Position numbers and translations under genes: made by a program. Positions 1 to 6,913 of a stretch of 64,000 bases of DNA are shown in pieces (the stretch's first letter is position 1; every line of letters begins with the position of its first letter). Under the pieces are notes generated by a model. It was not told the origin of the DNA. It ran no database searches and worked only from the letters and a program-made list of their open reading frames with translations. This stretch comes from Escherichia coli (GTDB lineage: Bacteria; Pseudomonadota; Gammaproteobacteria; Enterobacterales; Enterobacteriaceae), in assembly GCF_013315695.1 (NCBI RefSeq), contig NZ_CP054353.1; one strand, given 5' to 3'.

Positions 1-48
1 GCCAAAGCAATAAGTCCCAAACTAAACCCGGGGAGTTTTTTCAGTTTC
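1..48 (-). CDS. Partial ORF start at window edge, product unknown
   Basis: ATG (reverse complement) at 46-48 reading out of the window; only 16 codons (MKLKKLPGFSLGLIAL...) visible; not recognised. Confidence 0.2.
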
Positions 49-449
49 ATAGATTAACCATCCATTCATTGGATTAACAAACATTCCTGGTCAAATAACC
101 TATGAGTTCAGATTACCAAAACGGAGGGTAAAGACAAAAACAAAAGCACAAGAAATTTAAATAGATAAACAGCGACAATACATAAATGATAAATAAGTCA
201 GCATTATCATTTTTCACCTTATTTTCATGACATTGATCACTTTGGAGTGACGAATTTGTTTAACAAATAACTCTTCGACATCAAAATTATTAATAGTTGC
301 CATTGGAATTATTTCGATGATATATAAAAACAACTGTGATAACACCAGGGTTGACAACTATTTGCGCAATAATACCTTTCCTTCAATGATCCAGGCGTTC
401 ACTGCCAGCAACCCATTCAGCCGCATACTGACAGTGAGAAACTGAAAGT

Positions 450-553
450 TTAGTGCTGATCCCTGTGGCTGACGAGTCTTTCCCTTAATCGATTAACCAG
501 ATTGATCGCCAGCCAAACAAGGGCATTAAGCAAATTTATCGTCACAAGCACTT
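450..553 (-). pseudogene. ymgF: ymgF 3' fragment (codons 41-72), separated from the 5' part by IS2
   Basis: Minus-strand translation (E)[33 protein letters not shown] continues in frame from the fragment at 1871-1990; together they give a 72-aa small membrane protein matching recalled YmgF. Confidence 0.7.
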
Positions 554-1456
554 TGGATTTGCCCCTATATTATCACTTAACCCATTACAAGCCCGCTGCC
601 GCAGATATTCCCGTGGCGAGCGATAACCCAGCGCACTATGCGGATGCCATTCGTTATAATGCTCGAACGCCTCTGCAAGGTTCTTTGCTGCCGTTAACCC
701 GTCTGGTTTGGGCATGATACTGATGTAGTCACGCTTTATCGTTTTCACGAAGCTCTCTGCTATTCCGTTACTCTCCGGACTCCGCACCGCCGTGTTCTTC
801 GGTTCAAGTCCCAACATCCGGGCGAACTGGCGTGTTTCATTAGCCCGGTAGCATGAACCATTATCCGTCAGCCACTCCACTGGAGACGACGGAAGATCGT
901 TGCCGAAGCGGCGTTCCACCGCTCCCAGCATGACGTCCTGTACTGTTTCACTGTTGAAGCCGCCGGTAGTGACCGCCCAGTGCAGTGCCTCACGATCACT
1001 GCAGTCCAGCGCGAACGTGACACGCAGTCTCTCTCCGTTATCACAGCAGAACTCGAACCCGTCAGAGCACCATCGCTGATTGCTTTCTTTCACGGCCACT
1101 CTGCCTGTATGTGCCCGTTTCGATGGCGGTACAGCAGGTTTTCGCTCAAGCAACAGCGCATTCTGGCGCATGATCCGGTAAACACGTTTGGCATTGATCG
1201 CAGGCATACCATCAAGTTCTGCCTGTCTGCGAAGCAGCGCCCATACCCGACGATAACCATACGTGGGCAGCTCTCCGATAACATGGTGTATACGGAGAAG
1301 CACATCCGTATCATCAGTGTGACGACTGCGGCGGCCATCCATCCAGTCATCGGTTCGTCTGAGAATGACGTGCAACTGCGCACGCGACACCCGGAGACAA
1401 CGGCTGACTAAGCTTACTCCCCATCCCCGGGCAATAAGGGCGCGTGCGCTATCCAC
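542..1456 (-). CDS. insD: IS2 transposase InsD (OrfB), variant C-terminus; ORF terminates 12 bp outside the IS end
   Basis: 304-aa ORF matching recalled IS2 InsD except the tail ...[12 protein letters not shown] (canonical recalled as ...LSDNRCLEI). Confidence 0.85.
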
Positions 1457-1870
1457 TTTTTTGCCCGTCCATATTCAACGGCTTCTTTGAGGAGTTCATT
1501 TTCCATCGTTTTCTTGCCGAGCAGGCGCTGGAGTTCTTTAATCTGCTTCATGGCGGCAGCAAGTTCAGAGGCAGGAACAACCTGTTCTCCGGCGGCGACA
1601 GCAGTAAGACTTCCTTCCTGGTATTGCTTACGCCAGAGAAATAACTGGCTGGCTGCTACACCATGTTGCCGGGCAACGAGGGAGACCGTCATCCCCGGTT
1701 CAAAGCTCTGCTGAACAATTGCGATCTTTTCCTGTGTGGTACGCCGTCTGCGTTTCTCCGGTCCTAAGACATCAATCATCTGCTCTCCAATGACTAGTCT
1801 AAAAACTAGTATTAAGACTATCACTTAAATAAGTGATACTGGTTGTCTGGAGATTCAGGGGGCCAGTCTA
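554..1870 (-). mobile_element. IS2: IS2 insertion sequence, 1317 bp, flanked by 5-bp direct target duplication CACTT (549-553 and 1871-1875)
   Basis: Terminal sequences TGGATTTGCCCC (554 onward) and GGGGGCCAGTCTA (ending 1870) match IS2 ends; insC and insD ORFs inside; identical 5-bp flanks. Confidence 0.9.
1414..1779 (-). CDS. insC: IS2 InsC (OrfA) transposase regulatory subunit
   Basis: Track ORF contains [26 protein letters not shown]...; start adjusted to conserved Met (121 aa). Confidence 0.9.
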
Positions 1871-1990
1871 CACTTCTCCCAGCCCGGTACTGGGTTTTGC
1901 AATAAGGATGACCAGGAGAGTGATCAGCATAAATGCAATGGAAAAGATGATATAGAGAGTGAAATAATCCAGATTATTACTATTGTTCAT
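1871..1990 (-). pseudogene. ymgF: ymgF 5' fragment (codons 1-40) truncated by the IS2 insertion
   Basis: Manual minus-strand translation MNNSNNLDYFTLYIIFSIAFMLITLLVILIAKPSTGLGEV ends at the IS2 left end. Confidence 0.7.
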
Positions 1991-2121
1991 GCTACTAATG
2001 GCAATCCTGTCAAAACTTTCAAACAATTATAGCAAACAAAATAATGAACAATAGTAACAAGAGGCAACGAGCTAATTAGCTGTCTATAATTACACCGCAC
2101 CATGGCCTTACTGATCAATTT

Positions 2122-3645
2122 TCACTCAACCACAACCTTCACCTTCGGTTTAGAAAGGATAATTTTGACCAGGTCGATGTATGTAACAGGTTTATAGAAA
2201 TAATAACCCTGCTGAAATGTGATATTATTTTGGTTCAGATAATCAAGTTGTTCTTTCGTTTCGACACCTTCAGCGACGATACTGATCGAAAGTTTACGCG
2301 CCAGATCCAATACACAATCCAGAATTCGGGTTGATTCTGGGTCTGCGTTGACGCGGCCAACGAAACTGTGATCAATTTTGATATAATCAATATGCAGGTC
2401 ATGCAGATAAGAAAGCCCTGAGTAGCCAGTACCGAAATCATCCAGCGCGATGACAAAACCATTTTCATGCAGAATGTTCAACCGCTGAACCAGACTTTCA
2501 TCAACATTTAATGGCTCACGCTCGGTGACTTCCAGAACGAGGTTTAAATCGCGGCGGGTAAAACTGTCACGGTAATTTAAGCACTCGTCGACAAACGTCG
2601 GCGAAATAATATGCGAGGCGCTAAAATTAATTCCAATATGAAAACCTTCCGGCAGTTTACTCGAGATAGCGTTCATCTGTCTGGCAACCTGATTCATCAG
2701 GCTTTGCGTAAGCGGAACGATTAATCCGGATTTTTCAGCAAGTGGAATAAATGCCGCGGGTGATATATATCCACCGTGAAGTTGTTTCCAGCGGGCTAAC
2801 ACCTCAACTCCCCGCAATGTCCCTTCCCGACCATTTACCACAGGTTGGTAAAAAGGGACGATCTCCCCATTATTTATTGCCCGTCGCAGGATCTCTTCAG
2901 GCGTTGCGCATTTATTGAAATACCTATCAAGCAGCAAAGCAGCGGCGCAGGCGATTAACAGAATAAATATCAAAATCCCAAAGCCTTTATCGATAAGTCT
3001 GTAGAAGCTAAAGAGTGGCGGCGGGTTAAAGATAATAGTGAAATGATATTTTGTGGAGTGAACCTTCTCGGTATAGGGATAATGTCCATTAAGCGTCATC
3101 ACATCACCCGTTGGTCCAATAATGTCATCCGCCACGCGTAATACATACCTTACCCCTTTCAAGGGTACATTAAGCGCCCCGCGAATATGCTGATCACTTA
3201 TCGTAACCAAAATGCGCGTATCTGCAAATTGGCTCTGATAGAGCAGGATAGGTAATCTATTAACGGTGTCGATTGCCGGAGCCAACAGTAAATTACTGTC
3301 CGGGACAACAGGAATACGAGACAGCAGGACCCGATTCCCCGGTAAGGATGTACACCAGACCGTTCCCTGTTTGAGAATGATGATTGTGCGCAGGTGAGGT
3401 TTCAGAGCTGCTTCAGTGCCAAGCTGATATTGCTCCTCGAGGTCGCATTCCTTCCCGGCAATGTTAACCGCTGTTTGAGTCGCCTGTGACGCTTCTTCAA
3501 GTATATGATTGATATTGTTGGCGGCATATCTCGCTCCTGCCAGGTACTCTGCTTTTGCGGAATACCAGAGCTGGATGTTCAAAATAGCGACACCGGTTAT
3601 AAACAAGCATATCGCAACGAGGATGGGTATGAGTGTATTGCGCAT
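2122..3645 (-). CDS. pdeG: CSS-domain cyclic di-GMP phosphodiesterase (EAL domain) PdeG/YcgG
   Basis: Track ORF 2122..3687; N-terminal TM, periplasmic CSS region, C-terminal EAL domain; start set at MRNTLIPILV (507 aa). Confidence 0.85.
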   Translation of the reverse strand: MRNTLIPILVAICLFITGVAILNIQLWYSAKAEYLAGARYAANNINHILEEASQATQTAVNIAGKECDLEEQYQLGTEAALKPHLRTIIILKQGTVWCTSLPGNRVLLSRIPVVPDSNLLLAPAIDTVNRLPILLYQSQFADTRILVTISDQHIRGALNVPLKGVRYVLRVADDIIGPTGDVMTLNGHYPYTEKVHSTKYHFTIIFNPPPLFSFYRLIDKGFGILIFILLIACAAALLLDRYFNKCATPEEILRRAINNGEIVPFYQPVVNGREGTLRGVEVLARWKQLHGGYISPAAFIPLAEKSGLIVPLTQSLMNQVARQMNAISSKLPEGFHIGINFSASHIISPTFVDECLNYRDSFTRRDLNLVLEVTEREPLNVDESLVQRLNILHENGFVIALDDFGTGYSGLSYLHDLHIDYIKIDHSFVGRVNADPESTRILDCVLDLARKLSISIVAEGVETKEQLDYLNQNNITFQQGYYFYKPVTYIDLVKIILSKPKVKVVVE

Positions 3646-6709: not shown

Positions 6710-6913
6710 TTTTCAGCACATTATTTCGTATGATTTCTGAAAATCATCGTGAAAATGAATACGTTATGTTTAAATTTAATCCACATTAAAAATAATGTTT
6801 CATTCAATTTAGCTGAAATCTTATTTATACTTTGTACAATTTTAGCGTATATTGTACAAAGTATTATTGGGTCGTGTACAGGCGACGGAGATTTGTGACC
6901 GCAAGGAGGAATT

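Follow-up and report, generated by a model that had tools for sequence, protein, structure and literature searches.

We asked whether an IS2 copy in an Escherichia coli genome has truly lost part of its right inverted repeat (IRR), when such a loss could have occurred, and whether a copy with this end could still move. The window, by which we mean the whole stretch of 64,000 nucleotides analyzed, carries a single insertion sequence at its left edge, an IS2 copy of 1317 bp on the minus strand (554-1870). Its ends were located by a search for the terminal tips and by full alignment to our reference, the IS2A copy of E. coli K-12 MG1655 (NC_000913.3, 381260-382590), which is 1331 bp long and has an insD1 of 301 aa. 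Window position 554 is the outer end of the IRR, with the tip TGGATTTGCCCC, and position 1870 is the outer end of the left inverted repeat (IRL), where the window reads the reverse complement of TAGACTGGCCCCC. A search of the 64-kb window for both end tips returned no second IS2 copy with which the ends could be compared.

Compared to K-12 IS2A, the window copy has 7 substitutions over 1317 aligned bp (99.5% identity) and one 14-bp gap near the right end. The canonical right end of K-12 IS2A is TGGATTTGCCCCTATATTTCCAGACATCTGTTATCACTTAA, in exact agreement with the sequence given in the preliminary description, whereas the window copy reads TGGATTTGCCCCTATATTATCACTTAA, with a clean gap of 14 bp and identical sequence on either side. 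Because a TT dinucleotide is repeated at both edges, the gap can be placed equivalently at IRR positions 17-30, 18-31, or 19-32. One TT is retained at window positions 570-571, and the deletion junction can be drawn at 569/570, 570/571, or 571/572. The window copy shares with K-12 IS2A the outer 16-18 bp and the inner 9-11 bp of the IRR but is without positions 17-30, leaving a repeat of 27 of the 41 bp at 554-580 (minus strand). The preliminary description had proposed a 14-bp deletion inside the IRR and a length of 1317 bp rather than the canonical 1331 bp. Alignment to K-12 IS2A and to the same-site IS2 of E. coli AF3 and MSB1_4I bears out the deletion, and the length follows from the ends at 554 and 1870 and the annotation of K-12 IS2A. 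As the comparison with the reference copies is direct, chance is not at issue for the reality of the deletion.

The rest of the element has the features of K-12 IS2A: a 42-bp IRL, orfA, the A6G site, orfB with an rve core, and a 5-bp target-site duplication. The IRL (1829-1870, minus strand), delimited by the tip search and the alignment to K-12 IS2A, is complete and differs from that of K-12 at element positions 32 and 42. The orfA frame (InsC; 1414-1779, minus strand) encodes 121 aa and is intact, both as an open reading frame and in its HTH_Tnp_1 domain. Also intact is the A6G programmed -1 frameshift site AAAAAAG (1456-1462, minus strand; element positions 409-415), the role of which has been described for IS2 (PMC3299598).

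These observations allow the copy to be classified. Elements that share 95% or more of their nucleotides with the reference usually count as isoforms under ISfinder; the window copy, at 99.5% identity to K-12 IS2A, lies above this threshold. It has the two overlapping frames with the A6G frameshift, the HTH domain, and the DDE/rve core that characterize IS2. Its 42-bp IRL begins TAGACTGGCCCCC, with two substitutions relative to K-12, and it is flanked by a 5-bp target-site duplication, CACTT, from which the reconstructed empty site is an intact ymgF. The complete 41-bp IRR and the 1331-bp length of IS2 are lacking, the corresponding values being 27 bp and 1317 bp. From its sequence, we classify the window copy as IS2 (IS3 family, IS2 group) by descent, and as a defective derivative rather than a functional IS2.

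The seven substitutions relative to K-12 IS2A include element position 32 and positions 42-43 at the left end. At positions 42-43 (window 1828-1829), the window copy has CACTTATTTAAGTG and K-12 IS2A has CACTTAAATAAGTG, a change that flips the central dinucleotide of a 14-bp palindrome. The flipped dinucleotide falls inside the OrfA repressor binding region, which spans IS2 positions 39-48 (PMC3299598). The intact sister copies described below carry the same change, and it is therefore unrelated to the deletion.

The canonical orfB stop codon lies inside the IRR, and after the loss of 14 bp, reading continues in a shifted frame as far as a TGA at 542-544. The orfB (InsD) frame consequently occupies 542-1456 on the minus strand and ends 12 bp outside the element, its final 12 nt (542-553) being within ymgF DNA. 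Its product is 304 aa long, compared to 301 aa in the intact copy, which ends in LSDNRCLEI; in place of the last 5 canonical residues, RCLEI, it has IGANPKCL. The extension of InsD into flanking DNA had been noted in the preliminary description, and both the lengths and the position of the stop agree with our reading. The predicted OrfAB fusion is 412 aa in the window copy vs 409 aa in the intact form. All of the Pfam domains found (HTH_Tnp_1, HTH_21, rve, and rve_3) are intact, with rve/rve_3 ending at residue 389 of the 412-aa OrfAB and the changed tail starting at residue 405. OrfAB carrying a C-terminal GFP fusion is fully active (PMC3219604). Given this activity and the position of the tail downstream of all Pfam domains, the short altered tail is an improbable cause of disablement, and we regard the DNA end as the defect.

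The copies of CACTT that flank the element lie at 549-553 on the right-end side and at 1871-1875 on the left-end side, and the insertion divides ymgF into a 3′ fragment (450-553, minus strand) and a 5′ fragment (1871-1990, minus strand). Both fragments were assigned from the annotation of the same locus in relatives and from the restored reading frame: taking out the element and one CACTT copy in silico restores a YmgF ORF of 72 aa. The product of ymgF is a cell division-associated inner-membrane protein. In the relatives' annotation, pdeG and the ymgC-ariR-ymgA-ycgZ / bluF-bluR cluster beside ymgF are intact.

Used as a query against 5,426 complete E. coli genomes, the junction region yielded 18,372 matches to the IS2 right end. 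Only in four places did a match also cover 24 bp of the ymgF flank, and all four are 14 bp longer than the window copy, that is, full-length IS2. The genomes with a full-IRR IS2 at this identical ymgF site are AF3, MSB1_4I, OZ546925, and OZ546911. Their insertions share site, orientation, duplication, and IS2 sequence with the window copy; unlike it, they measure 1331 bp with the whole IRR present, and their annotation is that of a normal IS2 transposase. Except for the gap, the window IS2 is identical to the same-site copies in AF3 and MSB1_4I, and the identity with AF3, where the element measures 1331 bp, extends over window positions 1-3140. Over the first 25 kb, the window has 1 substitution relative to MSB1_4I and 3 relative to AF3, and over the whole 64 kb it differs from MSB1_4I, the closest genome, by 3 substitutions and one 14-bp gap.

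As near-identical genomes carry full-length IS2 at the same site, the insertion is older than the divergence of these strains, and the deletion came later. These alignments show that the element lost the 14 bp where it now stands, in a very recent lineage. The CACTT duplication was inherited from the intact ancestor, so it provides no evidence that the short form can transpose.

IS2 at the exact ymgF site is found in only 4 of the 5,426 complete E. coli genomes and can therefore serve as a marker of the clone. Country of origin was looked up for two of these four genomes and is Australia and the UK. The sole three substitutions between the 64-kb window and MSB1_4I are at window positions 6888, 32064, and 48602, the first of which is in the bluF-bluR intergenic region according to the annotation of the relative.

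The short allele was then sought in larger collections. No match of 100% across the junction was present among the 18,372 IS2 right-end matches in the 5,426 E. coli genomes or among 5,182 IS2 right-end matches in 72,556 plasmids, and an exact 40-nt scan of metagenome contigs for the junction gave 0 matches. By exact look-up in a collection of 15 billion proteins, we found no record of the 304-aa orfB product, the 412-aa OrfAB, or a 266-aa internal-start form; the corresponding intact products of this allele, of 301 aa and 409 aa, do occur in the collection. The short-end allele is a singleton in all collections searched. That no second copy was found anywhere is consistent with immobility, but the argument is weak, the allele being very young and the search within its own genome being confined to the 64-kb window.

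The expected consequence of the deletion can be read against the published biochemistry of IS2, the ends of which are a 41-bp IRR and a 42-bp IRL (Lewis et al. 2012, PMC3299598). In step I, the formation of the figure-of-eight and the minicircle, only the IRR acts as donor, and the IRL is no substitute for it (PMC3299598). Positions 1-11 of the IRR constitute the cleavage domain and positions 12-41 the transposase-binding domain, with elements B, II, C, and III. Transposase protection is strong over the cleavage domain and element B and weaker over the inner elements; a footprint obtained earlier covers IRR positions 16-41, and elements B and II are the proposed targets of the OrfAB DNA-binding domain (PMC3299598). 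Minicircles no longer form when a single base is deleted from the IRL at position 14, 26, or 29 (PMC3299598). By analogy, these positions may be taken as equivalents that bear on the lost IRR bases, the data themselves concerning the IRL and not the IRR.

Alignment of the IRL with the IRR identifies TCCAGACA and TATCACTTA(A) as the conserved blocks between the two ends of the window copy. With element boundaries assigned from our own reading of this alignment, the gap would take out element II (TCCAGACA) and the divergent stretch after it, element C. The last conserved block is now 14 bp nearer to the tip, or ~1.3 helical turns. The cleavage domain (IRR positions 1-11, window 554-564) is intact, and together with the strongly protected element B it may allow some residual binding. 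Because the IRR is the only donor end and elements of its binding domain are lost, we infer on good grounds that the copy is immobile: in agreement with the published IS2 biochemistry, it probably cannot transpose and is stranded at this site. That the short right end still works as a donor end, with element B and the cleavage domain being enough and elements II and C dispensable, strikes us as highly improbable; if it were true, the published bipartite-end model for IS2 would need revision.

The deletion also bears on the minicircle junction promoter. This promoter depends on an outward-reading -35 in the right end, which must lie exactly 17 bp from the -10 that the left end provides, the two ends being joined by a 1-bp spacer (PMC3219604). 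Taking the left tip TAGACT as the -10, we deduce that the -35 would correspond to IRR positions 17-22. The hexamer at these positions is TGGAAA in the intact element vs TGATAA in the window copy, and the deletion probably destroys the -35 of the junction promoter.

We considered whether the 14-bp gap could be a sequencing or assembly error, the true locus having a normal IS2. The allele is a singleton in every collection searched, as an error would be, and the relatives have many IS2 copies (6 to 17 places per record), repeats being the commonest trouble spots in assembly. We nevertheless judge an error unlikely. Apart from this gap, the 64-kb alignment with the closest genome is free of indels, showing that the assembly is not prone to them, and the gap falls outside any homopolymer or simple repeat. 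Moreover, by our own reasoning, mis-polishing with reads of other IS2 copies would make the end canonical again; a novel deletion would not result. If the gap is real, the perfect 5-bp target duplication and the complete coding capacity of the copy could be taken to mean that the short end belongs to a natural IS2 isoform, competent for transposition, which already had this end when it entered ymgF. This reading is hardly credible: sister genomes that are nearly identical carry the same duplication beside a full-length end at this site, placing the duplication before the deletion, and no other copy with such an end is present in about 23,500 IS2 right-end matches from E. coli genomes and plasmids. 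The missing bases, furthermore, sit in the mapped transposase-binding domain.

The mutational mechanism was most plausibly an ordinary small spontaneous deletion, with nothing special about it. The deleted segment does contain a palindrome, CAGA-CA-TCTG, and is bounded by TT, as might be expected had an aberrant transposase reaction or slippage across an IRR hairpin, rather than a random small deletion, removed it. Single-stranded DNA folding of the canonical segment, however, gave only -0.6 and -1.1 kcal/mol (z about -0.4 vs shuffles), which is not a meaningful hairpin, and we rejected hairpin-mediated slippage because the folding is no better than that of the shuffled controls. The microhomology at the gap is the 2 bp of TT only, as much as chance would provide; the sequence beside the gap shows no CA-3′ pseudo-end, the signature of transposase cleavage; and the deletion is unique in the E. 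coli genomes, plasmids, and metagenome contigs searched. A special mechanism is accordingly very unlikely. Recombination with a short-ended IS2 relative was also rejected, as both sides of the gap are 100% canonical and the relatives carry different deletions.

The reading that we favor, and consider likely as a whole, is that an intact IS2 inserted into ymgF, that a private spontaneous deletion later removed part of its IRR, and that the copy has since been fixed in place. An intact 1331-bp IS2 entered ymgF in an ancestor of this E. coli clone, making the usual 5-bp duplication. Afterwards, and solely in the line of descent that leads to the window genome, IRR positions 17-30 were lost in a deletion of 14 bp, probably spontaneous, with the 2-bp TT repeat at its edges. 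The element kept its left end, the 11-bp cleavage domain at the outer tip, orfA, the frameshift site, and every recognized transposase domain. What it lost is the central part of the transposase-binding domain at its one donor end; the inner block left over lies 14 bp closer to the tip, and the putative -35 of the minicircle junction promoter has changed from TGGAAA to TGATAA. The deletion itself, its origin in place, its uniqueness in the collections searched, and the intactness of the coding capacity are shown by our comparisons, whereas the immobility, the -35 loss, and the way in which the deletion arose are inferences. A right end of this form is expected to be unfit for proper binding and cleavage; no figure-of-eight or minicircle would then form, and the copy would stay where it is. 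OrfA, and OrfAB with its slightly altered C-terminal tail, may still be expressed.

Damaged insertion sequence ends are commonplace, and the case in the window is routine mobile-element decay, an event of a known kind that adds nothing new on how insertion sequences work or decay. What our analysis contributes beyond the preliminary description is the post-insertion origin of the deletion, its uniqueness, and the probable loss of the junction-promoter -35. For annotation, the copy should be labeled as IS2 with a defective right end and with an orfB stop outside the element. The private 14-bp marker could serve for fine-scale strain typing within the clone, and the copy, as a natural IRR mutant with positions 17-30 deleted, could be used to probe the published map of the binding domain.

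Two other groups of IS2-derived sequences likewise have small deletions within the IRR or at its edge. A degenerate IS2 right end is conserved on many Shigella/EIEC virulence plasmids (e.g., the pINV-like NZ_CP011417.1). The remnant on NZ_CP011417.1 has a 12-bp alignment gap at the inner edge of the IRR and the adjacent 3′ end of orfB, and it is annotated as a frameshifted integrase-core pseudogene adjoining icsP and ospB. Plasmids from poultry-associated E. coli (e.g., NZ_CP182388.1) carry an IS2-like pseudogene with a third, independent IRR deletion. The deletions in both groups differ from that in the window and arose independently, and the sequences that bear them are frameshifted or truncated, whereas the window copy is otherwise intact. 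The pseudogene on NZ_CP182388.1 has lost 15 bp (IRR positions 11-25) and reads TGGATTTGCC|ATCTGTTATCACTTAA across the junction.
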